Of a stretch of 64,000 bases of DNA, positions 25,172 through 52,000 are shown one piece after another. The position numbers and the translations under genes were made by a program. Position 1 is the first letter of the stretch. Every line of letters begins with the position of its first letter. This DNA is from a virus: positions 64,001 to 128,000 of the IMG/VR virus record IMGVR_UViG_3300003375_000013; one strand, given 5' to 3'. The notes beneath the pieces were generated by a model. It saw only the letters and a list, made by a program, of their open reading frames with translations, was not told where the DNA came from and did no database searches.

Positions 25172-26112
25172 ATATACTAATTACAGGTGGCATGGGATTC
25201 ATAGGACATAATGTAGTTATTGTTTTAGAAAAATTGAAACATAATGTTTCTATGGTGGACAATATAACTGATTATGGCATTATACCAAGGCGTGAATTAG
25301 ATTTCCTAATGTTTAAGAGAATATGTAGAATTAAATCTCCTAATATCACTATTGCTGATATCACAGAACCGTTAGACGATAAACTGTTTGAGGGTATTGA
25401 TGTTGTTATACATTTAGCCAGTTTTCCTAGACAAAAAGTTGTTAACAAAAATCCCGCCGCTGGAAGTAAAGTTATGAGTGAAGGATTATTGAACTTACTT
25501 GAACTATCCGTTAAACATGGTATTAAAAGATTTGTGTATGCTAGTTCAAGTATGGTGTATGGTAATTTTGATCATAACAGCACTAACGAAAATGCCGTAT
25601 GTGCGCCTATTGGCCAATATGGCATAATGAAACTGGCAGGTGAATGGTTAGTTCGAGATTATACTAGACAATACGGGTTAAATCATACCATTGTTCGTCC
25701 TAGTGCCGTATACGGACCATATGATGTAGAAGATAGGGTTATTAGTAAGTTTTTTGCCGCTGCTATGCGTGATGATAAACTGATAGTTAATGGAGCCGAT
25801 GAAATGCTGGACTTTACGTTTGTCGGTGATACTGCATTCGGTATAGCACTAGCTGCCACTAGCCCCGGTTCATTAAATAAAACGTATAATATATCCCGCG
25901 GCAAAGCGCATACTTTATTAGAAGCTGCTACATTAATAACTAAAATAGTCGGCAAAGGAACTGTTGTAGTTAGAGAACGAGATTCAGCGTTTCCTGTAAG
26001 GGGAGAACTAAATATACAACAAGCGAAAACAGATTTTGGATATCACCCTGATGTTAATCTAGCACAAGGATTATTTGAATACTACGAATGGCTTAAACAA
26101 GTAAAATTATAA
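25168..26112 (+). CDS. NAD-dependent epimerase/dehydratase (extended SDR)
   Basis: TGGMGFIG, HLAS, ASSSMVYG, YGIMK, AVYGP. Confidence 0.92.
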   Translation: MNILITGGMGFIGHNVVIVLEKLKHNVSMVDNITDYGIIPRRELDFLMFKRICRIKSPNITIADITEPLDDKLFEGIDVVIHLASFPRQKVVNKNPAAGSKVMSEGLLNLLELSVKHGIKRFVYASSSMVYGNFDHNSTNENAVCAPIGQYGIMKLAGEWLVRDYTRQYGLNHTIVRPSAVYGPYDVEDRVISKFFAAAMRDDKLIVNGADEMLDFTFVGDTAFGIALAATSPGSLNKTYNISRGKAHTLLEAATLITKIVGKGTVVVRERDSAFPVRGELNIQQAKTDFGYHPDVNLAQGLFEYYEWLKQVKL

Positions 26113-26682
26113 TATATATTGCGACATATTGTTATACCAAAGCTCAGGCCCACTATTAGTTAAATGATGTAACATAACCCATTGCTGACAACTTTCAGGA
26201 ATGGGATCTTTAGAACCACATACATTATACTTTGAAGATTCCATTGTAAACTCAATAGAACAATTTGTTTTAATTAATTCTAAATATTTTGAGAAGGCAA
26301 GTAGATTATGCTCACGACTAATAAATAAACAGTCAAGATTGTTTAGTTTAGCTACATTAAATTGTATGGGTAAACAGTAAGTTGTATTAAGAAACTTATC
26401 GCCACCACCAAACTTAGATAGTCCATGCCTATAATCTGGATGTATCCACATTCTAGTACTACATCTTCCAATACCTTTTGCCCAACGTTCATCACTAATT
26501 TGTAACGCACTAAAACATACAATTTTATCATTTATAATAACAACCGGAAATGATAAAAAATCCCTAGGATCTAATCCTATATAATTTTCTTTAAGATCAT
26601 CGGTTGTGTTAATGAGATATTCTTGATATTCTTCCCAAAGTGTTGTGTCAAAACTTGTAGCGAAATCAACTATTTTCTTCAT
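26107..26682 (-). CDS. GNAT-like protein
   Basis: IVCFSALQ...IGRCSTRMWIHPDYR. Confidence 0.55.
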   Translation of the reverse strand: MKKIVDFATSFDTTLWEEYQEYLINTTDDLKENYIGLDPRDFLSFPVVIINDKIVCFSALQISDERWAKGIGRCSTRMWIHPDYRHGLSKFGGGDKFLNTTYCLPIQFNVAKLNNLDCLFISREHNLLAFSKYLELIKTNCSIEFTMESSKYNVCGSKDPIPESCQQWVMLHHLTNSGPELWYNNMSQYIL

Positions 26683-26689
26683 CGTACTC

Positions 26690-26703
26690 TATTTAATTAA
26701 ATA
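26690..26703. promoter_or_regulatory. Palindromic back-to-back late promoters
   Basis: TATTTAATTAAATA is its own reverse complement; ATGs 7 nt (minus) and 4 nt (plus) away. Confidence 0.7.
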
Positions 26704-26707
26704 CCAT

Positions 26708-27541
26708 ATGCCTAAAATAAATTCATTCTTGTACTACATACTCTATCCAGTACATGCCATAGCATGGATAGGTACAATATTATTCTTTATATTTTTTGAC
26801 TTTACATGGACTAACTTTTGGCAATTGCTAATTGGCTGGATCATAATAGAAGGACTTGGCGTTGCTGTAGTACTACATAGGCATGTTAGTCACAAAGCTG
26901 TTGGACTACGACCTTGGTTAAAACCAATTTTACTATGGATTAGTTGTTTATCACTGCAAGGCAGTCCGCTTGGCTGGGCAGCAGTACACAGAGGTAGTCA
27001 TCACCGATACAGCGATACAGAAAAAGATGCCCACACACCCACCAAAGGCTGGTGGTACGCATGGCACATGTGGTTACATGATTGGGACAAATACTTTAAT
27101 CCTAAGTACGCAATAGATTTAGTCAGAGATCCTATGCATGTGTGGATTGCTAAGCATTATAACTATATTATTCTCGTAACTTATGTTATAGTAGGGTTGA
27201 TTAGCTGGAAACTGTTGCTATTTGGGTTTATTATACCAGCAGCACTAAGCTTATATATGGAAAGTAACATTAATGTATTTTGTCATACTAAAAATATGGG
27301 TTATAGGAATTTTGAAACTAAGGATAATAGCCAGAATGTTTCATTACTAGCTTGGATAACATGGGGCCAAGGTTGGCACAATAACCATCATGAGAAAGCA
27401 AGTAGCTATGATTTTGGATCTAGTGTAAGTGGCAAGTCAAGTGAGTGGGATTTTAGTTTAATCTTCTTGCCACTGATTGCCACTAAAGAAAGTAGACAAA
27501 AAATTTGGCGGGAGCGCAATGACAAACTTCACTCACAATAA
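26708..27541 (+). CDS. Membrane fatty acid desaturase (delta-9/OLE1-like)
   Basis: His boxes HRHVSH, HRGSHH, HNNHH; transmembrane segments. Confidence 0.92.
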   Translation: MPKINSFLYYILYPVHAIAWIGTILFFIFFDFTWTNFWQLLIGWIIIEGLGVAVVLHRHVSHKAVGLRPWLKPILLWISCLSLQGSPLGWAAVHRGSHHRYSDTEKDAHTPTKGWWYAWHMWLHDWDKYFNPKYAIDLVRDPMHVWIAKHYNYIILVTYVIVGLISWKLLLFGFIIPAALSLYMESNINVFCHTKNMGYRNFETKDNSQNVSLLAWITWGQGWHNNHHEKASSYDFGSSVSGKSSEWDFSLIFLPLIATKESRQKIWRERNDKLHSQ

Positions 27542-28436
27542 TCATCTTGTATACAGCATAGGTGGACGTGATTATGATTATAGAACAAATTCAATAGAAA
27601 AATATTCAGTAAGAGTTGGCGCAATAGACCCAGAACGATATGCTGCTAGCTCATATGTAGACGAATTACATCGTACTGCTCAGTTAGTAAGAAGTGATTT
27701 TGGCAAGGATCTTGTATTATTTTTATCAGGTGGCACTGACAGTGAAATAGTACTAAGAAATTTTGTAGCAACAGGATTCAAGCCACGCTGCGTTACTCTT
27801 AGATTTAAAAATGACTACAATGCCAGTGATTTAGTTGAAGCGCAAGCAATAGCGGATGAGTTGAGAGTTAAACTAGATATCATTGATATAGATATTGAGG
27901 ATTTTTACTATTCAGGCGAAGCTAAAGAGTTTGGCGAGCAAATACAATGTACTCAGATAACTTATATTATGGTTTACAGAAGCGTATTGAAACTAGGTGC
28001 TCCAGCAGTAATGGGCGGAGAAGCATTACTTACTAGACAAGTAAATCTTAATGATAGTTATTGGTATTATACACTTAGAGAAAATGAAGATGCCAGTGCC
28101 ATGCGTTTCTCTGATAAATTTGGAGTGCCATTAGTAAATGAATGGTTTAGTTATACACCTGAATTGCTATTGCATTGGTTAGAAAATCCTTTAGTAAAAG
28201 AACTCGTGTCCAATCGATACAACTACAAGCTAAACTCTGCCAGCAGCAAGAACTCAATTTTATCCACACTATACAAAACTAGACCTAAATCAAAAACACA
28301 TGGATTTGAAAAGTTACTAGACTTTAATCAAGAAGTATACAAAGAATTAGGAAGAACACAAATCAAAAGGCTAGAAGCCAGTATTGATGGCGTACCTTAT
28401 GATACCGTAATACAGCAATTGAAAGGACTGCTATGA
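27519..28436 (+). CDS. PP-loop (adenine nucleotide alpha-hydrolase superfamily) protein
   Basis: LFLSGGTDSEIVLRNF. Confidence 0.7.
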   Translation: MTNFTHNNHLVYSIGGRDYDYRTNSIEKYSVRVGAIDPERYAASSYVDELHRTAQLVRSDFGKDLVLFLSGGTDSEIVLRNFVATGFKPRCVTLRFKNDYNASDLVEAQAIADELRVKLDIIDIDIEDFYYSGEAKEFGEQIQCTQITYIMVYRSVLKLGAPAVMGGEALLTRQVNLNDSYWYYTLRENEDASAMRFSDKFGVPLVNEWFSYTPELLLHWLENPLVKELVSNRYNYKLNSASSKNSILSTLYKTRPKSKTHGFEKLLDFNQEVYKELGRTQIKRLEASIDGVPYDTVIQQLKGLL

Positions 28437-28951
28437 AAATTGTAGAATTAAATCTATTATATAGAGAACTTGTTAAACCATTATTCACAGTAGATGCGTT
28501 ATATGAAAGATTTGTAGACACTTATCTATCAGGGTTAACCAGTTACAAAGCACTAGCTATAGAACAAGAAGATGGCAGTATAACATCTTTTATATCATTT
28601 TATATAAGCCGTGATGACGCATGTTGGTACATCACTGATATAAAATCAAATGACGCAAAAGATGAACTTCGCACATTAATAGGTGCGGCAATAGCTCATA
28701 ATGAGGGAATGGGTAGGTTGAAATTTTACTCACTTATTGATGCTGATGATATTGGATTGGTGGATATTGTGTTTAATTTAAGATACAAATATGTTGATGA
28801 ATGTATAGTTCCAGCAAAAACAAGGTGTTTATACAATAATTATTGGCAAATACTGTATAATCGTATGTTACCAGAAAGAGATACTATAGTACGTTGTTCA
28901 TTTCTAAAACAAAAACACAGACGATTGCTACCAATCGGTGGTAATATATGA
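28433..28951 (+). CDS. Hypothetical protein, possibly GNAT fold
   Basis: Alternating helix/strand pattern with WYITDI strand; ATGA overlaps. Confidence 0.4.
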   Translation: MKIVELNLLYRELVKPLFTVDALYERFVDTYLSGLTSYKALAIEQEDGSITSFISFYISRDDACWYITDIKSNDAKDELRTLIGAAIAHNEGMGRLKFYSLIDADDIGLVDIVFNLRYKYVDECIVPAKTRCLYNNYWQILYNRMLPERDTIVRCSFLKQKHRRLLPIGGNI

Positions 28952-29556
28952 ATAGCTTAGTTAGTCCATTCAAAATATTTGATAGTGACTTGAACTATGT
29001 TAAAATAGGCTCAAATGAAGAATTGGGTAACGAACTAAGAGCTTATCTAGCTGATTCCGCTAATCATCATTTATGGAAACTTAGTACCCACAGACAAACT
29101 ACGACACATGCACTTCGTTTCACAGAATCTATACATTTAAGGTTCTTAAAAGATCTTCCAACAGGGGTATCTACTATAGAATCTAATCAATGGATGGAAA
29201 TTGGCGAAAAGCCCGTTTCAAATGAAGATATTTTTAAAAAAGCTACATCTTGGTTTGAAAAAATGTTATTAAATACAGGCGCGGACCAAGTTGAATTTGG
29301 CAGAATTTTTATTAGCAAATTATCAGCTAACTCTGTTATTGATTCGCATGTTGATAGTGGAAAATATTTTAGTTACTATGATAGATTTCATTTTACTGTT
29401 ACTGCTGCTGAAGAAAACATCTTTGTAATTAGAAATGAAGAATGTACATTGGAAAACGATTCATTATTCTGGGTTAATAATCATGTTCCCCATTGGTTAG
29501 AAAATCGTAGCAACCAGGACAGAATAAACTTTATCATAGACGCAAGATTATCATGA
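28948..29556 (+). CDS. AspH-like 2OG-Fe(II) oxygenase
   Basis: SHVDSG, RFHF, NNHVPHWLEN, RINFIID. Confidence 0.85.
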   Translation: MNSLVSPFKIFDSDLNYVKIGSNEELGNELRAYLADSANHHLWKLSTHRQTTTHALRFTESIHLRFLKDLPTGVSTIESNQWMEIGEKPVSNEDIFKKATSWFEKMLLNTGADQVEFGRIFISKLSANSVIDSHVDSGKYFSYYDRFHFTVTAAEENIFVIRNEECTLENDSLFWVNNHVPHWLENRSNQDRINFIIDARLS

Positions 29557-30428
29557 AAATAACTGACATACATAGTAGTTGGGGTTCAATTATACAGTTA
29601 GAATCTCCGGCTGAGTTCTTTCTATACAGTACTAATTACTGGCGTGATTTAATATACAAAAGAAAAGTAATATTCTTTAAACAAGTTAAATTTACTAATG
29701 CGGAATATGCAGAGTTTAGCTTACACTTTGGATCACCATGGCAACCAGATGATTACACTTATTCAAGAGAAAATGTAGAAACTGTTGATACTGAACACGG
29801 TGAGATGACATTAAGTCCTATAACTAATACAGCAAAACGATTGGGCATGAGTGAAATGCCATGGCATTCTGACATACCAAATAGATCATATAAGCCATTT
29901 CCATTTAGAAGCTTATGGATTGTGGCAAATCCCAATCCAACAGAGTCAGGCAAGACATCTTGGCTAAATCTTGAACATGCCATAGATTATCTTACTCCAG
30001 AAATGAAAAGTCTATTGCCTCGTGTGAAAATTATACAACAAAGTTGGTATAACCCAGGCACAGATGTTAAAGAATTTGATTTGATAAAAACTCATCCTAT
30101 CACTGGAAAACAATCGTTAAGATTAAACTATTATAACTGGGAAAAGAATACAGAAGCTTGGATATGCGGCGTAAAAATTGATAATGTATTACAACCAGAT
30201 TGCTCACTAGTAAGAGAATGGTTGTTTTACTTAGAAAAGATACCTGAGTTGACATATACTCATATTTGGGACACATATGACATATCAATTTACGATAATT
30301 GGCCGTTTGTACATAATAGATCTGAGTTGAAATTCAATAGTGATAATGAAATAAGGAAGTTTTATAGAATCAACATAGATCATCTTAACACTCATGAATG
30401 GCAGCAACATACCGCAAAATATTTTTAG
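29553..30428 (+). CDS. TauD/TfdA-family dioxygenase
   Basis: PWHSD, HPITGK, WDTYDISIYDNWPFVHNR. Confidence 0.88.
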   Translation: MKITDIHSSWGSIIQLESPAEFFLYSTNYWRDLIYKRKVIFFKQVKFTNAEYAEFSLHFGSPWQPDDYTYSRENVETVDTEHGEMTLSPITNTAKRLGMSEMPWHSDIPNRSYKPFPFRSLWIVANPNPTESGKTSWLNLEHAIDYLTPEMKSLLPRVKIIQQSWYNPGTDVKEFDLIKTHPITGKQSLRLNYYNWEKNTEAWICGVKIDNVLQPDCSLVREWLFYLEKIPELTYTHIWDTYDISIYDNWPFVHNRSELKFNSDNEIRKFYRINIDHLNTHEWQQHTAKYF

Positions 30429-30457
30429 ACTATTATATATGAGTTAAATACTATCCT

Positions 30458-32083
30458 ATGTTAAACATCTATCAAGTACCAACTAATGAAGTTACTAAAA
30501 TTGAATGGGAAGATGATTTCCTTGATTATGATAGTAAACTATCTCAACTAGGCAATGGACACGAAGAATTCTTAGTAATAAATCCAGAATTTGAAGGATC
30601 TGGATTACATAAAACTATAGAAAGAATACCCCCTACACCAGGAATTAAATGTGTGGTGTGGAAATTTCACGGCAATTGGATAGCAAAATATTTTAATAAA
30701 GCATGGACTCCGGACATGGGCTATTGGCCAGTAAAACTATTCAATACGGAATCTACTTTAGTATGGAAAAGAAATCCAGATATACCCGAAGAGTTACCTT
30801 TTTTAAACGATCCGTCTAAGTTAAATGCAGCACAAGAAGCAGAGATGCCATGGATTTCAGTATGGTACTTAGATCCAATGTTTAATCCTACTTCAGAAAA
30901 AATATGGGTAATGCGATGTTACAATTTATCAAATTCATCAATTAGTGGCGAAACAGATATGGGATATATTAGTCCCAAAGTCAGAATAAAATATAATCCT
31001 GATATTCCTAAAATAGATTTTGATATTAACTTTTTGATTCCATGGTATGATTTAAAATATGAACATGTATGGCATTTAGACGAACGATTTAATCCCACAG
31101 AGGATAAAATTTGGGCAATCAAAATAAAATTAATGAATGGTATGCCTAAACAAACAAAAGATATGGGATATGTTAGTCCAAAGATAATTTATAATCCAGA
31201 GCTACCAGTACTTGATTATACTATAGATGATCATATTCCTTATTATGATTTAGCATATGAACATGTATGGACAGTTGACGAGAGATTAGTCAACAGCTAT
31301 GAAGAAGTATGGGCAGCAAAAATTGTACCACACGAGTCCGAGGGTGTTAAGGTGGTCGGAAATATTAAATGCAATTTGCCTGAACAATTAGATGTGGTGT
31401 TTATTAGTTACAATGAACCTAATGCCGAAGCTAATTGGCAAAAAGTATTAGCAAAAGCTCCTAATGCTAAACGAGTTAATGGTGTGAAGGGTATTGTGGC
31501 TGCTCACAAACAAGCAGCGGCTATAGTAACCACTGACATGTTTTATGTAGTCGATGGTGATGCTGACTTAGCTGACTATTGGGATTTTAAATTTCAACCA
31601 AACTTGTTTGATAGAGATTGTGTTCATGTTTGGCGTAGTATTAATCCTGTGAATGAGTTAAAGTATGGATATGGCGGAGTTAAATTATTTCCAACTAAGT
31701 TAGTTATATCGGCAAATCCTAACAACACAGATATGACCACTAGTTTAAGTGATAAATTTAAACTAATGCCTAAGATTAGTAACACTACTGCTTTCAATAG
31801 TGATAAATTTAGTACTTGGCGCAGCGCATTTAGAGAATGTGCTAAATTGTCTGGCAAAGTACTAAAACGACAAATGGTTCGTGAAACAGAAAAACGCCTA
31901 GACATTTGGTGTACACTAGGTGCAGATAAACCCTTTGGAAAATATGCGATAGCAGGAGCAATTGCGGGCAGAAAATTCGGAGAAGAAAATCAAGGCAATG
32001 ACAGAATATTACAAAAAGTAAATGACTACGATTGGCTTAAATCAAAATTTAACGAGAATATGCTAAATAACATTGATAGTTAA
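30458..32083 (+). CDS. Three tandem approx. 65-aa repeats fused to a glycosyltransferase-like C-terminal domain
   Basis: Repeats NPDIP...W.LD.RFNPT..KIW...DMGY; C-terminal VFISYNEP...YVVDGDA. Confidence 0.65.
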   Translation: MLNIYQVPTNEVTKIEWEDDFLDYDSKLSQLGNGHEEFLVINPEFEGSGLHKTIERIPPTPGIKCVVWKFHGNWIAKYFNKAWTPDMGYWPVKLFNTESTLVWKRNPDIPEELPFLNDPSKLNAAQEAEMPWISVWYLDPMFNPTSEKIWVMRCYNLSNSSISGETDMGYISPKVRIKYNPDIPKIDFDINFLIPWYDLKYEHVWHLDERFNPTEDKIWAIKIKLMNGMPKQTKDMGYVSPKIIYNPELPVLDYTIDDHIPYYDLAYEHVWTVDERLVNSYEEVWAAKIVPHESEGVKVVGNIKCNLPEQLDVVFISYNEPNAEANWQKVLAKAPNAKRVNGVKGIVAAHKQAAAIVTTDMFYVVDGDADLADYWDFKFQPNLFDRDCVHVWRSINPVNELKYGYGGVKLFPTKLVISANPNNTDMTTSLSDKFKLMPKISNTTAFNSDKFSTWRSAFRECAKLSGKVLKRQMVRETEKRLDIWCTLGADKPFGKYAIAGAIAGRKFGEENQGNDRILQKVNDYDWLKSKFNENMLNNIDS

Positions 32084-32164
32084 TCTACTATTAATTTCCC
32101 ATAAAAGTTGTTTTCCCACACTCGTTCGTGTACACTATACACGCAAGTACCTTTAACATATCCC

Positions 32165-33457
32165 ATGACACAAGAACAAACTAAAATTATACCAATTATT
32201 TCCGAAAACGCTAGCTCAACTATATGTGCTGTACCTTGGATGCATCTTGCCTTTGAACCTAGTGGCAAAGTATTACCATGTTGCTTAACTGCTTCGCATA
32301 AAGTATTCTCAGGTGATCTTAAAACAATGACACTTGAAGAAGTATGGAATAGTGACAATCAAAAAGCAATACGCAAAGACATGATTGAAGGTAAAGAGCC
32401 TGCTATATGCTCAAAGTGTTTTGATCGTGAACGAGTAACAGGCGAAAGCGCAAGAACATACCATCGTAGAGATTTTCAAGACGTAATTGATACTATCCCT
32501 GATATCACCGAAGCTGATGGCACATGCACTACTATGGATTTAAAGTATTGGGATTTCCGATTCAGTAACTTATGTAACTTTAAATGTCGTAGTTGTGGCC
32601 CAGCATATAGCTCAGCTTGGGTACCAGATGCCACTAAATTAGGTTATGCCGATCAAGAAAAAGTATGGAGTATTGGTAACGTAGGGGAGCAAACCAACTA
32701 TGATTTCTTATATGATCAAATTGACAATGTGCGACGGATATATTTTGCAGGTGGTGAACCGTTGCTTATGCCAGAACATTGGCAAATTTTAGATATGTTG
32801 GTTGCCAAGGAACGATTTGACGTAAAGCTAAGTTATAACACCAACTGTTCCGTATTAGAGTACGGTAAGAAAAATATTGTAGACTACTGGAGTAAATGGC
32901 AATATGGTAAGTTAGAAATATGGCCTAGTATTGATGAGATTGAAGAACGAGCAGAGTTAATTCGCTCAGGTACAGTATGGAATAAAGTAGAAGCTAATCT
33001 AATTAAACTATCAACGTTGGATAATATCATACTTCGCCCTGGATTAACCATAGGAGCATTTAACGTGTTTCGATTACCTGAAATGATTACGCATTTAGTT
33101 GATATTGGCGTTATTAGAAGTGATCCGAAACGCAAGAGTCAAAATCACAATAACTTCTTTATCAATCTATTAGAAAGTCCTATTTACTATCATGTAAGTA
33201 TTTTGCCAGATGATTTTAAACATGAAATCATTCTTAAGTTGGAAAATTTCATAACGGAATTCAATGAGAAGCATGGGACTAATATTAGTAAGTTGTTTGA
33301 ACACATCTTATTTGAATTAACCAAGCCGTTTAATGTAGCAGCAGCTAAGCATTTCTTAAGACAGACTATGAAATTAGATGCATTACGCAATGAAGATACA
33401 TTTGAAATTATACCAGAGCTAAAAGCAGTAAAGGTAGCATTGAATGTGGAAAAGTGA
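32165..33457 (+). CDS. Radical SAM protein with N-terminal SPASM/twitch-like domain
   Basis: CAVPW...PCC; NLCNFKCRSC; YFAGGEP. Confidence 0.92.
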   Translation: MTQEQTKIIPIISENASSTICAVPWMHLAFEPSGKVLPCCLTASHKVFSGDLKTMTLEEVWNSDNQKAIRKDMIEGKEPAICSKCFDRERVTGESARTYHRRDFQDVIDTIPDITEADGTCTTMDLKYWDFRFSNLCNFKCRSCGPAYSSAWVPDATKLGYADQEKVWSIGNVGEQTNYDFLYDQIDNVRRIYFAGGEPLLMPEHWQILDMLVAKERFDVKLSYNTNCSVLEYGKKNIVDYWSKWQYGKLEIWPSIDEIEERAELIRSGTVWNKVEANLIKLSTLDNIILRPGLTIGAFNVFRLPEMITHLVDIGVIRSDPKRKSQNHNNFFINLLESPIYYHVSILPDDFKHEIILKLENFITEFNEKHGTNISKLFEHILFELTKPFNVAAAKHFLRQTMKLDALRNEDTFEIIPELKAVKVALNVEK

Positions 33458-35168: not shown

Positions 35169-36116
35169 ATGAACAAAATAATCAAAATACAGCAGCATGA
35201 CGATTCTTTGATGCATCTTACCTGGATGATCAACAACATATGTACCAACCATTGTTCTTATTGCCCTCCTAATTTACACGAAGGCAAAAATCATTACTAC
35301 GAATGGGAAAATGCTCAAAGATTCTTCAAGATGCTATTTGAAAGATATCCAAGAATACATTGTAGCGTCAGTGGCGGAGAACCTAGTTTAAGTCCATTCT
35401 TCCCTGACATTTGTAAAATATTCTACGAAGCAGGGCATACTATAGGGTGTACATCTAATGCTGCTAAACCAGCTAGTTACTGGAAAAACATAGCGCCATA
35501 CTTAGGTTACATCTGTTTTTCGTGGCATCCACAATTTCCTGATAAAAACTTTTTAGAAAAAGTAGTTGCCGCTGCTAGGCAAATACATGTAACCGTCCGA
35601 GTAATGATGTTATCTGAAAAGTGGGACGAATGTGTAGAAATGTTCAATGAACTAAGCAGTCGTTGGGAGTTTATAACAGAACCAGTTAAGATTATAGCAT
35701 ATAACGACATTGATCCTACCACTTCAGTATATACAGATGAACAATTAGAATGGTTTGAGAAAAACTATGGCAATCACAATGATAGGCCCCTTCGTCATTT
35801 AATTTCTCCTATAAATCCGGTTGTAATACTGTCTGATTATCACTTTGATGACGGCACTATCGTGAATAAAGCCAATGCTAGTGATTGGGTTAATCGTGGA
35901 TACACTAATTTCAATGGATATACATGTGAAATAGGAAAAAAATCATTGTTTGTTCGTCCTAATGGCATAATATATTTGGGTAACTGCTTAGTTGGTGGTA
36001 AAATTGGAAACATCAATAAGCCTGAAAAAATTATGTGGCCGACTGATAATATAAAATGTAACATTGACATATGTAGTTGCTCAAGTGACGTTAATATAAA
36101 CAAGTGGATTGAATGA
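35169..36116 (+). CDS. Radical SAM protein
   Basis: CTNHCSYC; SGGEP; C-terminal Cys cluster. Confidence 0.92.
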   Translation: MNKIIKIQQHDDSLMHLTWMINNICTNHCSYCPPNLHEGKNHYYEWENAQRFFKMLFERYPRIHCSVSGGEPSLSPFFPDICKIFYEAGHTIGCTSNAAKPASYWKNIAPYLGYICFSWHPQFPDKNFLEKVVAAARQIHVTVRVMMLSEKWDECVEMFNELSSRWEFITEPVKIIAYNDIDPTTSVYTDEQLEWFEKNYGNHNDRPLRHLISPINPVVILSDYHFDDGTIVNKANASDWVNRGYTNFNGYTCEIGKKSLFVRPNGIIYLGNCLVGGKIGNINKPEKIMWPTDNIKCNIDICSCSSDVNINKWIE

Positions 36117-37063
36117 ACAAAATAATTAGAATAGAACAACCAAGCAATGCTCCTTTAAATTTAACATGGATCATTAATAATATATGCACTAACCATTGTT
36201 CATACTGCGCCACAAACTTGCACATGGGAAAAAATCATAATTACGAATGGGCAAATGCACTAAGATTTTTTGAAATGTTGTTTGAGAAGTATCCTAAAAT
36301 ACATTGTAGTGTTAGTGGCGGCGAACCAAGTGTTAGTCCATTCTTTCCTGAAATTTGTAAACTATTTTATGATCGTGGGCATACTATTGGCGTAACAACT
36401 AATCTAGCGAAACCCGTTAGATATTGGAAAGAATTGGCTCCATATCTAAATTACGCATCAATATCATGGCATTCACAATTTATTGATATAAATTTTTTAG
36501 AAAAAACACTAGCAGTTGCAGAATTAATACCGACTAATGTTCGTATATTAATGCTGCCGGGGCAATGGGAACAGTGTGTCGCAGCATATGATAAGTTATC
36601 TAAAATAGATAAATTTACAACAGAACCAGTCATGATACAAGACAAACGAGGAATGGACTCAAGTGCTCACGTATATAATGTTCCGCAACAAATATGGTTT
36701 GAACAGAATAGACCGGCAAACGAAGGAAAAATGTTACATTTGTCTATACCACATGTTGCTGGACTAGGTGCCACTTATTTCTTTCAGGATGGCACGAGTA
36801 TAGAAAATGCTAATACCACTGATTTAGTAAACAGTGGGTTAACTCATTTCAAAGGATATGACTGCGAAATAGGATTAAAATCACTGTACATAGACTATAA
36901 CGGAAAAGTATTTGCAGGTAACTGTTGTGTCGGAGGTCCCTTAGGATCAATCAATGAACCAGAAAACATAACATGGGTAACACAACCTGTAAAATGTACT
37001 GTAAATTTATGCCATTGCGACACTGATGTTTCTATTAATAAAAGGATTGACAATGTTTTGTAA
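36113..37063 (+). CDS. Radical SAM protein (tandem paralogue of 35169-36116)
   Basis: Shared INNICTNHCSYC, IHCSVSGGEPS.SPFFP. Confidence 0.92.
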   Translation: MNKIIRIEQPSNAPLNLTWIINNICTNHCSYCATNLHMGKNHNYEWANALRFFEMLFEKYPKIHCSVSGGEPSVSPFFPEICKLFYDRGHTIGVTTNLAKPVRYWKELAPYLNYASISWHSQFIDINFLEKTLAVAELIPTNVRILMLPGQWEQCVAAYDKLSKIDKFTTEPVMIQDKRGMDSSAHVYNVPQQIWFEQNRPANEGKMLHLSIPHVAGLGATYFFQDGTSIENANTTDLVNSGLTHFKGYDCEIGLKSLYIDYNGKVFAGNCCVGGPLGSINEPENITWVTQPVKCTVNLCHCDTDVSINKRIDNVL

Positions 37064-38198
37064 ATTTTTAACTAACACATATCACTTTACATATGACAAT
37101 GTAAAGCCATGTTGCTGGATTAAACATACTCCAGAAACTCAAATTAAAATCAATGATCCCGATCTTATAGAAAAATTTAAACACATAAGACAGATAAATG
37201 ATTGGACACCAGAGTGTAGCTATTGCTATGACTTAGAATCATCGGGCACAGCATCTCCTAGAACACTTGCTACAAAAGAAGATATATTTACTAATGAAGA
37301 TGAGTTAGGCGATGCCATTAAGGTTGAACTACAGTTAGATGACGATTGCAATGCAGCATGTTTAATGTGTGGAACTTGGAATAGTACAACATGGCAACAA
37401 TACGAAACAAAAACTCTTAAAACTAAATTGCCGTCATATAGATGGCAAACTACAGTCAAAGAAAGAATTGAAGTTGTTAAAAATATGATTGATTTCAATA
37501 TGACAAAACAAGTACATTTTTTCGGAGGAGAGCCATTTAATGGTGACACCCAACTAAAAATGTTACGTCTGATGGAACATCCAGAAAACATTAAACTTGT
37601 GTATACGACAAATGGTAGCGTATTTCCTTCTGACGAAACATTGGCATTATGGAAAAAATTTAAAAATGTTCACATAGGAATTAGCATAGATGGCATCGGC
37701 GAACAGTTTAACTATTTACGATGGCCATTGCAATGGCACCAAGTTGAAAATAATTTAATAAAGTATATTAATCTAAACTACGATAATGTTACAATAAACA
37801 CCAGTTTTACTGCCACTCCATTTAACATATGGTATATAGACAAGTATACTGATTGGTCTATTGACTTTTCTAAAAAGTATAAATCAAATAAAACAGATCT
37901 TACCAGATGGTTCTTAAATCCACATCCAGTAGTTGGTGATAAAATGAATATGACTTGTATTCCTCCTGGGTTAGAAGAAGCAGTTATAGCTAAATTTGGT
38001 AAAGATAGTAGAGTTGCTAAATTAATAATGCCGTTTGATGTCCAAACATGTCTACATATGATCAATTATACGCAATTCCATGATAGGCATAGACACACTG
38101 ATTGGAAAAAAACTTTTCCGGAAATTGTAGATTACTTCGACATGGATATACTTGCTCCTGTTCGCAAAAGCAAAGTATGGGAAATAAAAAGCATATGA
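37053..38198 (+). CDS. Radical SAM protein with N-terminal SPASM/twitch-like domain
   Basis: FCKFL...PCC; CNAACLMC; FFGGEP. Confidence 0.9.
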   Translation: MFCKFLTNTYHFTYDNVKPCCWIKHTPETQIKINDPDLIEKFKHIRQINDWTPECSYCYDLESSGTASPRTLATKEDIFTNEDELGDAIKVELQLDDDCNAACLMCGTWNSTTWQQYETKTLKTKLPSYRWQTTVKERIEVVKNMIDFNMTKQVHFFGGEPFNGDTQLKMLRLMEHPENIKLVYTTNGSVFPSDETLALWKKFKNVHIGISIDGIGEQFNYLRWPLQWHQVENNLIKYINLNYDNVTINTSFTATPFNIWYIDKYTDWSIDFSKKYKSNKTDLTRWFLNPHPVVGDKMNMTCIPPGLEEAVIAKFGKDSRVAKLIMPFDVQTCLHMINYTQFHDRHRHTDWKKTFPEIVDYFDMDILAPVRKSKVWEIKSI

Positions 38199-39037
38199 AA
38201 ACGTTGCGAATATACGGAGATAGCTTTGCATCTGCTGAGAACAATAGTTTTTTAGTGTCAGCAGGATGGGGTAATATGTTAGGAGAGTTAATGAACATAC
38301 CAGTACAAAACAACGCTGTTTCTGGTAGTAGTACCGAATATTCTATTCTAACATTTGTCAAAGATGTTTCGACCGGTGTTATAAACGATAATGATATTGT
38401 TATTTTTGTTCCCAGTAGTATTGGAAGATTATATTTTTCTCATCAACTTCACGCACGACCAGAAACAGCAAGCCTCTACTTATCTGACCCGAAGCAATAT
38501 GAAGAATCACATAATTGGTATTATAGGAACAAAGATCACATAGAATGGTGGATGGTAAACAACGATAGGGCAATGCATGGCATTACGTTTGAATCCTATA
38601 TGCAACTTTTAAAAAACTTTGCCATTAGTAAACCATTATGTACTGTTATAGTATTGCCGGCATTCAATAACGGATACTACAACCAAGATATATTTAATAA
38701 TGTTCCTCCTCATAATTTTTTAAGAGCTAATATTTTCCTTAAGCGTATTAGTGAAGCTGAAGTAATATGCGATAATAGTGAATTTGATTATGTTTGGTGG
38801 AGAGAATTTACTACAATAGATCTTAGATCAAATCATTTGACTAATACAAATTTATCTATACTAGCTAATTTATTATTTAACTCAATAAACTCATTATCTA
38901 TAGATAATATTACATATGATAAATTCAAATCTAACAATATTAATAAGATTACAACAAAAGAACAATATTTAAAATATGTAAGGGATGGACTATTATCACC
39001 AAGGAAATATACAAAAATGCTAGGTAATCTGAAATGA
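38195..39037 (+). CDS. SGNH-like protein
   Basis: MKTLRIYGDSF, NNAVSGSS, RSNHLT. Confidence 0.6.
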   Translation: MKTLRIYGDSFASAENNSFLVSAGWGNMLGELMNIPVQNNAVSGSSTEYSILTFVKDVSTGVINDNDIVIFVPSSIGRLYFSHQLHARPETASLYLSDPKQYEESHNWYYRNKDHIEWWMVNNDRAMHGITFESYMQLLKNFAISKPLCTVIVLPAFNNGYYNQDIFNNVPPHNFLRANIFLKRISEAEVICDNSEFDYVWWREFTTIDLRSNHLTNTNLSILANLLFNSINSLSIDNITYDKFKSNNINKITTKEQYLKYVRDGLLSPRKYTKMLGNLK

Positions 39038-39708
39038 AAAATCATTTAAACTTTCCTCCAGCCCTACTTGAGTTTTATAATCAAAACAAAAACTGCTCAA
39101 ATCCAACATACAATAATTTTCAAGAATCACATGATGATCCAGAGTGTGCGTATTATCCGATTAAATTTGACTTTGATACTGTGCTATTGTTAGCAGAGTG
39201 CCAATCAGTGGATGATTTATATTTCAATCATCGTGGGCAAGACAAGAAAAAAGGCTATGGTCATGAAGGTTGGCAAAGTCTAACGCTACATGGTATTGAC
39301 AAACACAAGACAGAACATTATACTAAGTATGGGTTTACCAGTGCAACAGAAGCTGATTATCATTGGACTGATGCGTGTGAACGTGTACCTAACTTATACA
39401 AATTTTTAAGTAGTTTACCATTTACAGAATTTGATCGTGTACGTATTATGCGTCTTGCACCAGGTGGATACATTATGCCACATAGTGATAATAAATTTCA
39501 AAGAGCATTCGGCCCATTAAATATTGCTATCAATAATCCAGATGGATGTCATTTTGTTTTTAAGAATAAAGGTATAGTACCATTTGAGTCTGGCACTGGA
39601 TTAGTGTTAGATGTTGGGACTGAACATATTGTCATTAATAACAGCAATGAAGTTAGATACCATGTCATTGTACATGGCAATTACGATAAAGGGTTTTACA
39701 GTTTATGA
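39034..39708 (+). CDS. AspH-like 2OG-Fe(II) oxygenase
   Basis: RVRIMRLAPGGYIMPHSD; EHIVINNSNEVRYHVIVH. Confidence 0.88.
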   Translation: MKNHLNFPPALLEFYNQNKNCSNPTYNNFQESHDDPECAYYPIKFDFDTVLLLAECQSVDDLYFNHRGQDKKKGYGHEGWQSLTLHGIDKHKTEHYTKYGFTSATEADYHWTDACERVPNLYKFLSSLPFTEFDRVRIMRLAPGGYIMPHSDNKFQRAFGPLNIAINNPDGCHFVFKNKGIVPFESGTGLVLDVGTEHIVINNSNEVRYHVIVHGNYDKGFYSL

Positions 39709-41072: not shown

Positions 41073-41875
41073 AAACATTAAGAATATACGGAGATAGTTT
41101 TGGTGTTAACACTGAAAATCTTCAATCTTGGCCTATTATGTTGCAAAAAAAATTACAAATTCCATTAGTCAACAAAGCAGTAGGCGGTGGCAGTACCGAA
41201 TACGCAGCATTGCAATTTGTTAATGATGTACAAAATAATATTATCGGCAATGATGATATTGTCATTTATATACCTAGCACTAAGGGAAGATTACATTTTA
41301 ATTTTCAAATTTCAACACATCCAGAAACAGCTGGAGGATATTGCCATGGTCCGGACATTAGACCACATATTGACAATAGTTGGTACCATAGTAGCAAAGA
41401 GCATATAGAATGGTGGATGGTTAATGCATCTCACGCAGTAATTTCCATGAACTTTGAAAGTTATGTGCATCTAATAAGCAATGTAGCAAGGTCAAAACCA
41501 AATGCTACGTTTATAATGATAAGACATATAAAATGGAATCATCATATTCCTAATATCGTTCATCCTAGTAATTTTTTAATTCCTCCCGTATTGTTCACTG
41601 ATATTACAGCGAGAGAAATTATTGGCAAATATAATTACATGGATTTTGTGGAATTCACTAAGTATGATCCCAGAGCTAATCACTTAACTATTCCAAATTT
41701 AGAGATATTATCTGAATTAGTATATGAAACTATCAATACTAAATCAGTAGAAAATTTTACAATGGATAAATTTAAAACTAATGTAATTAAAAAAATAACT
41801 TCTGCTGAGCAATACTTAGAATATGTTAAACAAGGTTACTTAGATTTTAGTCATAGCATATTGATGAATTTATGA
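41069..41875 (+). CDS. SGNH-like protein (paralogue of 38195-39037)
   Basis: MKTLRIYGDSF, HIEWWMVN, RANHLT. Confidence 0.6.
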   Translation: MKTLRIYGDSFGVNTENLQSWPIMLQKKLQIPLVNKAVGGGSTEYAALQFVNDVQNNIIGNDDIVIYIPSTKGRLHFNFQISTHPETAGGYCHGPDIRPHIDNSWYHSSKEHIEWWMVNASHAVISMNFESYVHLISNVARSKPNATFIMIRHIKWNHHIPNIVHPSNFLIPPVLFTDITAREIIGKYNYMDFVEFTKYDPRANHLTIPNLEILSELVYETINTKSVENFTMDKFKTNVIKKITSAEQYLEYVKQGYLDFSHSILMNL

Positions 41876-42414
41876 TAAACAAAGACGCATTTTCAAATGG
41901 CCAAATGGATAGTAAGCTATGGTTATGTCGTGAACTTGAGAAGTTAGGATGGGATAGTAAACTAACACGCATATACGCTGGCTGGTATGGAATAACTGGA
42001 TTCTTACTGTTAAGTAGAGAAAAATTTATGGTTGATCGTATTGAAAGCTATGACTTAGATCCTACATGCGAGGCTATTGCTGATATGATCAACGAAAATT
42101 GGGTTATTAAGGAATGGAAGTTTAAAGCACATACAAAAGATTGTAATATAACATTACCTGGTAATCCAGATCTAATAATTAACACTAGCACAGAGCATTT
42201 TGACTCTATGGATTGGTTTAATAACATTTCCAAGGGAACTAGAGTTATACTTCAAGGGAATGATATGCCACATGATGATCATGTGGTACATTCAGCGACA
42301 TTAGATGATTTTATTGATCATTATCCACTAACAAGCATTGATTACTATGATAGTTTAGACTTCGTGTATCCTGATTCACAGTTTACACGTTATATGATAA
42401 TTGGCACTAAGTAA
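41872..42414 (+). CDS. Class I SAM-dependent methyltransferase-like protein
   Basis: SKLWL, AGWYG, SYDLDP, INTSTEH, RYMIIG. Confidence 0.7.
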   Translation: MINKDAFSNGQMDSKLWLCRELEKLGWDSKLTRIYAGWYGITGFLLLSREKFMVDRIESYDLDPTCEAIADMINENWVIKEWKFKAHTKDCNITLPGNPDLIINTSTEHFDSMDWFNNISKGTRVILQGNDMPHDDHVVHSATLDDFIDHYPLTSIDYYDSLDFVYPDSQFTRYMIIGTK

Positions 42415-43359
42415 TTACCAGCCTTCTTGCCTGCGTATTACATCAATTTCACGAACCATAATACCTTGGTTATGCCAATTACTGTGATAGTGTCTTTTAA
42501 AAAATCTACTTGCAGTTTCATCTAACATTGTTATAGGAAGATCTAATTGAGTAATTAGATCGGGTGCTATTCTAGCAGCAACTTGCTCTGGGTCATGCCC
42601 ATCTATTGTATCATAGATTAACTTAAGTGCATTAAAATCTTGAACAGTGGTATGATCCCATGATGGGTTAATCATAAGCATGTAAGTGCCCATACGAGCA
42701 CCCAACATAGCCCAGATGCCATTTTCAACGTCTCTGCCTACATTATGCCATATAGTTAAGTGATCAAGATTACGATGATGTACTCTGCTTCTAAAATCTT
42801 GTATGCTAGGCTTAGCTCCACGATCTAAACACATCTTAACACCTTCCCTAAACCCCGCTCTCCACGCCTGAAAAGGTGATCCATCTGGATATGTTGTCGA
42901 ATAACAGTCATGCATAGCCCAATACAGTGGATCAAAGCAAAACTCTACTTGCGTTTCAACTTTACCATCAGTATTTTCATGTGTTTTCATGTTATTAATG
43001 AAAGTGCGGGTCCATGAGCTAATTCCCCCATTACCATACATCAATCCATTGATATTATTTCTGGCACGCCAACGATATACTGCTTGTTCCCATTGTTCAT
43101 CAGGAAATTCAAGTATCAGATCAAAGAAATCATCTTCGGGTAGATTATCACCATCAATTAAAATAAATCTTTCAGTTTCACTGGCAGCAGCGGCAGCTTT
43201 ATGTGCGGCATCTGATCCTATTACTCCGTCAACTCGTTTAGCCCATGGCGCCATGTTTATTATTTGAGCCCAAAACTTTTCTTTCTGTGGCTCATCATAA
43301 GTTAGAAATATAATGTCTAATTCTGCAATACATAATGTGGTTTTTTTCATATTTTTCAT
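42415..43359 (-). CDS. Glycosyltransferase-like protein (paralogue of 30458 C-terminal domain)
   Basis: IFLTYDEP, KRVDGVIGSDAAHKAAA, ILIDGDN, AWRAGFREGVK. Confidence 0.65.
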   Translation of the reverse strand: MKNMKKTTLCIAELDIIFLTYDEPQKEKFWAQIINMAPWAKRVDGVIGSDAAHKAAAAASETERFILIDGDNLPEDDFFDLILEFPDEQWEQAVYRWRARNNINGLMYGNGGISSWTRTFINNMKTHENTDGKVETQVEFCFDPLYWAMHDCYSTTYPDGSPFQAWRAGFREGVKMCLDRGAKPSIQDFRSRVHHRNLDHLTIWHNVGRDVENGIWAMLGARMGTYMLMINPSWDHTTVQDFNALKLIYDTIDGHDPEQVAARIAPDLITQLDLPITMLDETASRFFKRHYHSNWHNQGIMVREIDVIRRQEGW

Positions 43360-49065: not shown

Positions 49066-52000
49066 TTAATTTAACCCCCGTAAAAACAGAGCAGGAATAG
49101 TATTTGTCTCCTGTAATGGGACACCATTTGACGCTGTTGGAGGATTAATGCCAGGAGCATACCAGGTTGATCCAAATTTTACAAATATTGTTATTTCAGA
49201 TCCGTCTGCTGGAGGAATATCAAATAATATTACCACTGGATCTATATTTGTTACCGCATATCCACTAGTTTGTAATTTTCCGCCAACATAAACTTGAATT
49301 GCTTCTATGTTTCCAGCAAATCCATAATCAAATGATAAAGATTCTCCAGTAACATTACCCTCATCAAATGTAGTACTATCAAATGGCTCTGTATTTTTCC
49401 AGAAATTAGCGTAGTTAACATTAATATTAGTAGTGTATGCACTTGTCGAACCATTGCCTAAGAAAGAGTTACTTTCAATATAATTTTGGAACTCAGGCGA
49501 CAACAAATTGCCACGGCCCATATCATAAACATAAGCACCTATGTTATGTTGCGCTGCTGCTGTACCAGCAGTACCACGAAGTAAACTACTAATAGTGTTG
49601 TTCACTAAATCAATTTCACGATACATAATACGTTCGCCATTAATGGTAACCACACCCCACATATTAGCAGTAAAATTAGGAATGCTTAATGCACTAGCAT
49701 TAGATACATATATGATATCATCAGTCTGGGCGACTTGTTGAGTCACAGTAGTTGTAGAATTCGGGGTAATACGATAGGTTGCTTGTACTCCTCTCATATC
49801 TTGGAATATTCTAAATGCCATCGCTTCTGGAACTACTGAATTAGTCATATTAGTTATCATCAACGTATCAGTAACACCTATTGTTCCGGAATTTAATATT
49901 AATAAATTGCCCTCAATCGTGTAATCTAAGTATGCAGTTAGCGTTCTTCCATTCAATGAAACCCATGGACGAGATATATCAGTATATGCTTGATATAATA
50001 CAAAATTATTAGTTTGTATAACTGTGCCAACAGTGCCATCAAATGTATTACCAAATCCAGTAGTATCATATCCTTCATATATAGCCGAACCTTCTTCTAC
50101 TGGTCCAACAAATATTTGCGTTGATAATCGTTGTTCACGAGTATCATTAAATGTAGTTACCGAAATTACTTGACCCACAAATGGATTTATGCCTGTATTT
50201 TCGATAAAAGTTAATGTCATCGCTATAGGATCAATTATATATTGTGCAGTAGAATCAACCGCAATGTAAATTTGTGCTCCGTCAGCTGGGGCAGTATCTA
50301 ACAACACATATAATACACCTGCATCAAGATCAAATGGACCTGCCGAGAAATAATCAACAGAACTATCAGAACTAAATCCGTCGGATATTTCTAAATCGTA
50401 TGTTGTTGGATTTTGTAATACACCATCAATATATACACTTACATTAGCTTTTTCGATAGTAATAGGGCTAGCCGAAATGCGTTGTGGTAATACATAGGTA
50501 ACAGTATTTCCATCACCCACATAAGGAATCCCAGCTGACCCGCGTGCCGTAATTCCGCCTACTGTAACAATTGCTGTGACAGGATTGGTATATTCCAAAC
50601 TAATTGCTGGATCTAAGTCAAACACCAATTGACCAGAAGTAGCAACAGTAAAACTTTGTGCCACTGGCAAACTCCAACTATATTCAGTAGTCACAGAATC
50701 AATTGTGGTAGGTCCAATTGCGGCTAGACTAATAAAATCAGTTGAAGTGTAAGTATTGTTGAATGTAATGGTAGTAGTGCCATATGCTGTTCCAGCAATA
50801 TATGAATAATTAGCATTAGACAAATAATTGCCATTGACAAAAATAGCAAAACCGTTATTATCAGGAGATAATAAAGTATAATCAACGGGAACTATCAATA
50901 TATCACCAAATTCATCACCTAGATATGTGTCTTTGAATAACTGATTGCCACCGCCCAATTCATAAACGTAAATGCCAAGTTGATCCCCATTAATTACTCT
51001 AGTAAAACTTGATAAGATAGTAAATGTTAAAGATGGCCAATCAACAGTATAGTCTATCCCTTCAACTAAATTATATCGTTGAGTAGCATTTGTTATTTCT
51101 AAATCAAATGGATAAGTTACTAAATTAGCAAAACTTATAGTTGGATTTGTGATGTCATATATGACCTGTACTAATCCTTGGTTAAATCCATGACCTTTTC
51201 CAGACCAATCAGCACCGGGAGTTGTATAAACACGCATGTCTAATGTATCAAATTCTATTCCTGGCACTAATTCTTCGGGAGCATGACTTTCAAACACATC
51301 AACATACTTGCCACCATCAATATTAATGTCAGATGGACGGATTCCTAGATATGGATCTAAGTAGCTACTTTCAAAAATAGTATCAAGTATATTTAAATCA
51401 TACGTTGGTTGACCACTAGCATCTAATGAGAAGTTATCAAAAGGATTAATATCAAAGTTACCGCGATCAAATCCAGTATCTTGACTAAAATTCAATCCAA
51501 CTACTTGAACACCCGGATAATCAATACCATCTACCAATAATGGTAATGATAATCCTGGGGTATTAACTGTGCTGACATAATAACCCATTGTACGGTTAAC
51601 GCCGCTCAATACACTAGCATCAATGCGAGTCCATTGAGCAGGATCAAATACTGAATTAGTAACGGTTTCGTTAGCACTCCATACTATAGCATCAAAACGA
51701 ACTTGTGTGCCTATTTCATACGTTGTATTGGCTACCCACTCAACAATATTTGATGAATATTCATATCTATCATACTTTAATGTAGTATTAAATGTACGAG
51801 CCAATGAATGACCAGATGGATTGCCCATTATCACAGCGGCCTGAGCAATTTGTCCCACAAATGCTAGGGTTACAGTGCCATTAACTTGATTTTCTTGCCC
51901 AACCGGAGCAACACCATCCAATGTTCCAGCTACAGTTACTTCAAATATGTTGTTTGAAGGAGTGATTATGTAACTACTTGAAACTACAGATAAATTAGCA

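Follow-up and report, generated by a model that had tools for sequence, protein, structure and literature searches.

A late-type phage operon joins a membrane desaturase to a new PP-loop ATPase family and two GNAT-fold proteins in a candidate acyl-tailoring pathway

Among the closest described systems is JamABC, a terminal-alkyne cassette composed of an acyl-ACP ligase, an acyl carrier protein (ACP) and a membrane desaturase acting on acyl-ACP (bioRxiv 10.1101/291195); related acyl-ACP tailoring cassettes are reviewed elsewhere (RSC Chem Biol, PMC8341276). In phages, the vFAD enzymes of cyanophages have been proven to be delta-9 lipid desaturases that act on host membranes (Roitman et al. 2017, PMC5776448), and pelagimyophages carry variable islands, with a stearoyl-CoA (coenzyme A) desaturase in the freshwater ones, whose genes have been listed without a joint pathway (PMC7029224). 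Phage desaturases have so far been read as single membrane-fluidity genes; here we describe one lineage of them that is locked into an apparently virus-only operon. It lies in a 64,000-nucleotide (nt) stretch of viral DNA, hereafter the window, which corresponds to bases 64001-128000 of the 177-kb IMG/VR contig IMGVR_UViG_3300003375_000013. Six genes spanning 26107-30428 of the window are predicted to encode a membrane desaturase, a PP-loop ATPase, two GNAT-fold proteins (GNAT-a and GNAT-b) and two Fe(II)/2-oxoglutarate (2OG) oxygenases. We propose, with a probability of about 0.55, that they make up a phage pathway, expressed late, in which a fatty-acyl group is activated, desaturated, hydroxylated and transferred. 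In the literature, no paper combining these genes in phages was found.

Five of the genes run rightwards in a coupled chain and one, GNAT-a, runs leftwards:

26107..26682, minus strand: GNAT-a, a 191-amino-acid protein with a GNAT fold in the predicted structure, divergent from the desaturase gene
26690..26703, no strand assigned: back-to-back TAAATA boxes forming the 14-bp palindrome TATTTAATTAAATA; the box begins at -10 relative to the desaturase ATG and at -13 relative to that of GNAT-a
26708..27541, plus strand: predicted membrane fatty-acid desaturase of SCD1/DesC (delta-9) type, 277 amino acids (Pfam, SCD1 structures, invariant His boxes)
27519..28436, plus strand: predicted PP-loop ATP pyrophosphatase of a new viral family, 305 amino acids (SGGTDSE motif)
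28433..28951, plus strand: GNAT-b, a 172-amino-acid protein with a GNAT fold in the predicted structure, translationally coupled to the PP-loop gene
28948..29556, plus strand: predicted AspH/LpxO-type cupin Fe(II)/2OG oxygenase, 202 amino acids, accessory (Pfam Asp_Arg_Hydrox)
29553..30428, plus strand: predicted TauD/TfdA-family Fe(II)/2OG oxygenase, 291 amino acids, accessory (Pfam TauD)
30445..30450, plus strand: TAAATA box of the next gene (30458-32083), at the right border of the operon

The desaturase was taken to start at the ATG at 26708, the upstream GTG of the mechanically called open reading frame (ORF) being discarded, and the PP-loop gene at the ATG at 27519, which is preceded by a GGGAG box; its homologues are 305-306 amino acids long. 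The desaturase and PP-loop reading frames overlap by 23 nt, and each of the last three junctions of the chain (PP-loop/GNAT-b/AspH-like/TauD-like) is a 4-nt ATGA overlap. The initial annotation of the window had described this same chain of desaturase, PP-loop, GNAT-like, AspH-like and TauD-like genes with a divergent GNAT-like gene. The overlapping ORFs bear it out, and the fold and family calls, 'GNAT-like' included, all proved right by Pfam, motifs and structure prediction. Since the next gene, at 30458, owns the TAAATA at 30445, the right-hand border drawn there corresponds to a real transcription-unit border. At the left end, a sugar-nucleotide epimerase gene (plus strand, end 26112) converges on GNAT-a (minus strand, end 26107) so that their 3' ends overlap by 6 nt, and no terminator-like hairpin lies between them (26107-26112).

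The genes recur together in other phages. Two sets of loci were assembled, one of 13 loci recovered with the desaturase as query and one of 79 loci recovered with a profile of the PP-loop protein (49-96% identity); the headline counts refer to the 55 non-redundant loci of the latter set that extend at least 3 kb on either side of the gene. GNAT-b stands beside the PP-loop gene in 55 of 55, and the desaturase and GNAT-a accompany it in 54 and 51, respectively; GNAT-b and the desaturase share its strand. At one locus (L012), a diverged PP-loop/GNAT-b pair lies on the opposite strand and is still beside the desaturase. In the desaturase-derived set, GNAT-a, desaturase, PP-loop and GNAT-b occur together in 11 of 12 close loci, and AspH and TauD follow in 9. 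Genome comparison shows a conserved core that is made of four genes (GNAT-a, PP-loop, GNAT-b and desaturase), with the AspH-like and TauD genes as accessories. The initial annotation had expected all six genes to co-occur across phages: this holds for the four-gene core, found in about 50 diverged phages, but not for the AspH-like and TauD genes, which lie near the module in only 32 and 18 of the 55 loci. A lack of co-occurrence across phage genomes had been set beforehand as part of a possible refutation of the biosynthetic reading; the genes do recur together and the reading survives.

Two gene orders exist, with overlaps of 1-4 nt. The majority order is GNAT-a, (ACP), PP-loop, GNAT-b, desaturase; in the clade of the window, the desaturase is shifted to the front and GNAT-a is inverted. 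GNAT-a of the window and the ORF found just upstream of PP-loop in the other order are homologues at the profile level only (hhalign 94%, E 1.3e-7). The 'Down' ORF family that follows the desaturase reaches an hhalign probability of only 13% against the AspH-like protein of the window.

The nature of the substrate is suggested by an additional gene of the sister modules. An ACP is part of the module in 25 of the 55 loci. Placed between GNAT-a and PP-loop in 36 loci, it is a 72-78-amino-acid ORF with an LGLDSLD motif that overlaps the PP-loop start, and four examples pass the Pfam PP-binding model with 21-31 bits against a cut-off of 20.8. Because an ACP is inserted into the same module in sister phages, the substrate is probably an acyl group. 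The earlier suggestion of a compact phage biosynthetic cluster for a modified acyl compound gains from this, but its conserved unit has four genes and not six.

The desaturase scores 57.8 bits against Pfam FA_desaturase (gathering cut-off 29.7), and its best solved relatives are the SCD1 structures 4ymk and 4zyo (E 8e-10). The di-iron ligand boxes HRxxSH, HRGxHH, N...H and HNNHH align with SCD1 4ymk and are invariant in 30 homologues; judged by these matches, the protein is of the SCD1/DesC (first-desaturase, delta-9) type. In a phylogenetic tree, the module-linked desaturases of both gene orders form one virus-only clade (support 99/98), which excludes 18 bacterial delta-9-type enzymes, a stand-alone phage desaturase (L014), the desaturase of Pelagibacter phage Mosig and the second desaturase of locus L040. 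The group to which the desaturase of the window belongs sits on a long branch inside this clade. Because all module-linked desaturases fall together, the tree indicates one capture of the gene followed by rearrangement, and the single clade rules out separate recruitment in the two gene orders. Second desaturases, very divergent and a few kb from the module, occur in some sister phages (L040:6648-7457), the latter on a long branch with the Mosig enzyme in the tree. The closest bacterial desaturases are 30-36% identical (Acidobacteriota, cyanobacteria), and none of them has PP-loop or GNAT neighbours. Among 50,697 GenBank phage records, tblastn with the desaturase returned only three distant matches, at 28% identity. 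One of these, L100 (CAKLQH020000002.1, 'Acinetobacter phage MD-2021a'), is flanked by btuB, ugpQ, baeSR and trpC and looks like bacterial chromosome. Neither a 2Fe-2S ferredoxin nor psbA was found in the 177-kb contig, which therefore provides no phage electron donor and no hint of the host.

The PP-loop protein carries the motif SGGTDSE, in which S70, G72, S75 and E76 do not vary among 55 diverse members. Its profile matches NadE (3p52) with an E value of 3.4e-5. The matches to NadE, QueC, MnmA, TtuA, ThiI and TilS are limited to about 65-100 N-terminal residues and all remain below the curated cut-offs, whether in Pfam (QueC, 19.7 vs 22; NAD_synthase, 18.3 vs 21) or in NCBIfam (13-20 bits vs 64-479). 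By its motif and profile matches the protein is a member of the PP-loop ATP pyrophosphatase superfamily, in which it defines a new family. This family, of which 773 homologues and 1330 representatives at 50% identity were collected, is apparently virus-only. The Atlas neighbours of the protein are 93-96% viral, and Asn_synthase or QueC labels are only occasional among them. No member was found by tblastn in the 50,697 GenBank phage records, against which a megablast of the module region likewise gave no match, nor in 185,579 prokaryote genomes by a pattern scan limited to two conserved peptides. Remote PP-loop relatives are fused to a GNAT domain that Pfam recognises, at the N-terminus in P0359 and P0391 and at the C-terminus in P0416, and one remote relative has an AspH-like gene two genes downstream. 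At L019:7006-9425, two tandem PP-loop paralogues stand amid aminoacyl-tRNA synthetase genes.

Some more specific identities were rejected. A QueC or 7-deazaguanine role was discarded because the match, below cut-off, is confined to the ATP loop and because neither Que nor Dpd partners were seen. An acetamidino-sugar amidotransferase (WbuX/PseA) finds no NCBIfam match, and the neighbouring epimerase is near the module in only 10 of the 79 loci. A beta-lactam synthetase in a thienamycin-like cluster (PP-loop, 2OG oxygenases, GNAT, radical S-adenosylmethionine (SAM) enzymes) was suggested by composition alone, with no crotonase or other scaffold enzyme.

For the two remaining core proteins, Pfam, PHROG and NCBIfam gave no match. 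The AF2 model of GNAT-a (mean predicted confidence, pLDDT, 94) has a Foldseek probability of 1.0 to many GNATs (VIA Z 11.4, root-mean-square deviation (rmsd) 3.3, 145 aligned residues), and that of GNAT-b (pLDDT 85) also reaches a probability of 1.0 (VIA Z 13.9, rmsd 2.9, 134 aligned residues). The modelled structure of both proteins is the GNAT alpha/beta fold; no relationship between the two could be detected. On inspection by eye, a Gly-rich insert precedes helix 3 in GNAT-a, and GNAT-b is devoid of glycine at that place. The GNAT domains fused to PP-loop relatives do match Acetyltransf_1.

Both accessory proteins are, on the basis of profile and motif, Fe/2OG oxygenases with intact metal sites. 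The AspH-like protein scores 36.5 bits against Pfam Asp_Arg_Hydrox (PF05118; cut-off 22.6), and its metal site H134-x-D136...H182 is conserved in 23 homologues; a specific identity as LpxO or OlsC was not supported, no NCBIfam model matching at E 0.1 or better. The TauD-like protein scores 65.6 bits against Pfam TauD (cut-off 27), with H105, D107 and H254 as well as the 2OG-binding Arg, R268, conserved in 28 homologues.

The palindrome TATTTAATTAAATA occurs once in the window, at 26690-26703, in the 25 bp that separate two divergent start codons, the ATG at 26682 (minus strand) and that at 26708 (plus strand), and is the only back-to-back TAAATA pair in the 177-kb contig. At least one match with at most one mismatch arose in 18 of 100 shuffles (mean 0.19); the palindrome by itself is not improbable and the weight therefore rests on its position and conservation. 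In 10 related phages, both hexamers (TATTTA and TAAATA) are invariant and the flanking intergenic and central bases vary (TATTTAMTTAAATA). Among relatives with the gene order of the window, the box is at -10/-11 in 13 of 16 loci and at -28 in one more. An operator for a dimeric regulator is a less likely explanation of the palindrome, because its symmetry is broken in most relatives while both hexamers persist.

Across the contig, no other hexamer is as enriched as TAAATA in the 40 nt preceding called starts (46 vs 3.2 expected, 14-fold), and 46 of its 173 copies fall 8-40 nt before a start. These boxes follow two spacing classes. In the first, they lie 25-32 nt upstream of the start and an AGGA/GGAG box always follows. 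In the second, which comprises 26 of the 187 called genes, they begin 10-13 nt upstream of the ATG, with no Shine-Dalgarno sequence and no room for one, since only 4-7 nt separate box and ATG. The spacings of the desaturase (-10) and of GNAT-a (-13) are both within this genome-wide class, which further includes portal and tape-measure-like genes and, in the window, boxes such as those at 30445, 6243 (minus strand), 8633, 19104 (minus strand) and 35075 (minus strand). Among the other genes behind TAAATA are those for tail fibres, for a virion structural protein and for a baseplate wedge subunit (E 2.7e-288). Sigma-70-like promoters and intrinsic terminators between 24.8 and 32.3 kb are at chance level.

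The T4 late promoter has TATAAATA at -10 and is read by gp55 together with gp33 and the sliding clamp. By analogy, TAAATA would be the core of a late-type promoter, and late timing would follow from the same comparison. The double late promoter initially annotated stands in so far as two conserved boxes of the class preceding virion genes are present, but they are not canonical T4 TATAAATA and share only its TAAATA core. With boxes so close to both ATGs, the two transcripts leaving the palindrome would be nearly leaderless. For the short-spacing genes in general, T4 geometry would put the mRNA starts 0-2 nt before the AUG and yield a large class of leaderless late transcripts; the head-to-head pair and the boxes 4-7 nt from starts suggest that such mRNAs are numerous in this phage group.

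How might these proteins act together? The catalytic motifs of the desaturase, the PP-loop ATPase and both oxygenases are intact. LarE is a PP-loop enzyme that adenylates a carboxylate, after which a thiol attacks. In the pathway that we propose, the PP-loop enzyme would similarly adenylate a carboxylate, most likely that of a fatty acid or of a carboxyl-bearing acceptor. Either a thiol, on the ACP in sister phages and on that of the host or on CoA here, or an amine would then receive the activated group. While the chain is tethered, the membrane desaturase would introduce a double bond, as JamB does on acyl-JamC, and the AspH-like and TauD-like oxygenases, where present, would hydroxylate it. 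Finally, the two GNAT-fold proteins would move the acyl group onto an amine acceptor. The outcome would be an unsaturated, possibly hydroxylated, amide-linked lipid made during particle assembly, either as a free metabolite or as part of an envelope lipid or a virion protein.

Several points weigh against this scheme. The product, the substrate and the transcripts of the pathway are all predicted from the gene content. The PP-loop enzyme aligns with known proteins only in its nucleotide-binding part and fits no characterised family, so that its substrate is a guess. No ACP was found in the modules of this phage's clade or in the 177-kb contig, and for that reason the carrier is, in this clade, assumed. 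The usual CoA loop (Q/RxxGxG/A) seems, from model and alignment inspected by eye, to be missing in GNAT-b, a protein that may have no transferase function. Remote PP-loop relatives (25-28% identity; L015, L019) have no desaturase, and the link between the two is thus a property of one large branch only. Since all loci come from related large phages, the synteny is in part inherited. Lastly, T4 geometry applied to the -10 spacing puts the predicted desaturase transcript start at, or 1 nt inside, the ATG.

A bolder version, which we consider possible but doubtful, is that the PP-loop protein, together with its GNAT partner, constitutes a new kind of ATP-dependent enzyme that activates acyl groups and forms amides in place of the usual ANL ligases. 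With it, large phages of fresh waters would produce, late in infection, an unsaturated N-acyl lipid specific to viruses. Such a lipid would alter the envelope of the infected cell or serve as a signal, for example in phage exclusion, lysis timing or particle release. If the pathway is real, large aquatic phages possess their own small route to a lipid or acyl-amide, a new chemistry is added to the PP-loop superfamily and a widespread family (more than 1300 clusters at 50% identity) obtains a testable function. The cassette, of about 4.3 kb, is short enough that it could be expressed as it stands.

The contig has an estimated completeness of about 51%, and its virion proteins resemble those of very large myoviruses, e.g., PA5oct and Atu_ph07; GC content is about 35% across the whole window. 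A single ORF on the minus strand at 49066-63891 has 4941 codons, or 4977 if read open to the window end, and adjoins baseplate and fibre genes. Downstream of the module comes a radical SAM block, in which the genes at 32108-33457 and 37026-38198 encode proteins with an N-terminal twitch domain (NF033640, E 3.9e-105 and 5.1e-54); two more radical SAM genes are at 35169-36116 and 36113-37063, and a second AspH-like gene is found at 39034-39708. The 541-amino-acid protein encoded at 30458-32083 has three copies of a W(H/Y)LD..FNP...KIW repeat in its N-terminal half. Its C-terminal half and the product of 42415-43359 (minus strand) are paralogues with a DGD(N/A)D-type motif and, by eye, the look of GT-A glycosyltransferases. 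Next to the latter, 41872-42414 encodes a 180-amino-acid protein that by eye looks like a small SAM-dependent methyltransferase and is encoded no more than a few kb from the PP-loop gene in 17 of the 79 loci, often upstream of GNAT-a. In L015, this methyltransferase-like protein directly precedes a GNAT-PP-loop fusion, and a homologue of the GT-A-like paralogues (L015:6566-7441) is encoded two genes upstream of the fusion.

This setting could also be taken to mean that the enzymes decorate a virion protein or a peptide. They would then acylate and hydroxylate a structural protein, such as a tail fibre or the 4941-amino-acid protein, or a small ribosomal peptide, in the manner of the GNAT-lipidated, beta-hydroxylated RiPPs (ribosomally synthesised and post-translationally modified peptides). 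The module shares its promoter class with virion genes and sits in a variable region beside baseplate, fibre and giant-protein genes, AspH-type enzymes (PF05118) classically hydroxylate Asp/Asn in proteins, and four radical SAM genes, two of them of the twitch-domain type, lie just downstream. However, the flanks vary by locus and neither a fibre gene nor a gene for a small conserved peptide accompanies the four-gene core, whereas the invariant membrane desaturase and the frequent ACP insert point to the acyl donor side rather than to a protein substrate. We therefore hold decoration to be unlikely as a separate explanation; it overlaps with the acyl-tailoring pathway, in which a protein could be the final acceptor.

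Equally unlikely in our view is the remodelling of host membranes by independent auxiliary genes, with the desaturase serving fluidity as vFAD does, the AspH-like enzyme acting on lipid A or aminolipids like LpxO/OlsC, and the others being unrelated neighbours. In favour of this, the desaturase has a full SCD/DesC site, cyanophage desaturases are proven delta-9 lipid enzymes (PMC5776448), and variable islands of the kind are described in pelagimyophages (PMC7029224), that of Mosig containing AspH, desaturase, TauD, GNAT and radical SAM genes but not this PP-loop family. Unrelated genes would nevertheless hardly keep overlapping stop and start codons, nor an adjacency that outlasts a change of order, divergence to 38-49% identity and the inversion in L012. 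Among such genes neither an ACP nor GNAT-PP-loop fusions would make sense, the linked desaturases stand apart from the bacterial enzymes and from that of Mosig, and the AspH-like protein matches no NCBIfam model at E 0.1 or better. Nucleic-acid modification, with the PP-loop enzyme acting on a tRNA or DNA base like QueC, TilS or MnmA and the GNATs as Mom/TmcA-like base acylases, is very improbable. In its favour are the weak matches to QueC, MnmA, TtuA and TilS, the names QueC or TilS given to homologues in some sources, and the appearance of Mom and TmcA far down the fold list of GNAT-a. Against it, those matches are confined to the common ATP-binding motif and stay below every curated cut-off, QueD, QueE, FolE or DpdA-type partners were not seen among the families recurring beside the module, and the genes that always accompany the PP-loop gene are for a desaturase embedded in the membrane and, in relatives, for an ACP.

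Compared with known systems, the acyl-tailoring module combines familiar parts in a different way. Its promoter resembles the T4 late promoter in being an AT-rich -10-type box with no -35 element, in standing before virion genes and in having an identical TAAATA core. It differs in that the two 5' positions are free here (ATTAAATA), the full 8-mer consensus being unmatched at this site, in that about 26 of 187 genes have the box 4-7 nt before the ATG without a Shine-Dalgarno sequence, and in the head-to-head fusion of two boxes into a palindrome. With NadE, QueC, the C-domain of AsnB and LarE, PP-loop enzymes that adenylate carboxylates or carbonyls, the PP-loop protein shares the SGGxDS pyrophosphate loop and an N-terminal nucleotide-binding domain; it has no glutaminase domain, and its remaining ~200 residues and a conserved N-terminal NNH/GGR segment match nothing. 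The island of Pelagibacter phage Mosig (MT647606) likewise has AspH-like, TauD-like, desaturase, GNAT and radical SAM genes near tail-fibre genes, but neither the PP-loop family nor either of the module's GNAT families is present there, and the Mosig desaturase is placed outside the module clade. Cyanophage vFAD and the module desaturase are both phage-encoded membrane enzymes of SCD/DesC type whose His boxes are complete. Whereas vFAD genes are described as single auxiliary genes for membrane fluidity, the module desaturase belongs to a separate virus-only clade and is locked to PP-loop and GNAT genes. From JamABC, the phage module departs in that the activating position is held by a PP-loop ATPase, with no AMP-binding or ANL-family acyl-ACP ligase, in being virus-only with two obligatory GNAT-fold proteins, and, in the window and the 177-kb contig, in having no ACP, which 25 of 55 sister modules possess; nothing in it points to acetylenase activity. 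What the two have in common is an operon in which an activating enzyme and a membrane His-box desaturase are combined with a dedicated ACP (for the phage modules, in the sister phages), and with it the logic of activating an acyl group, carrying it, oxidising it and handing it on.

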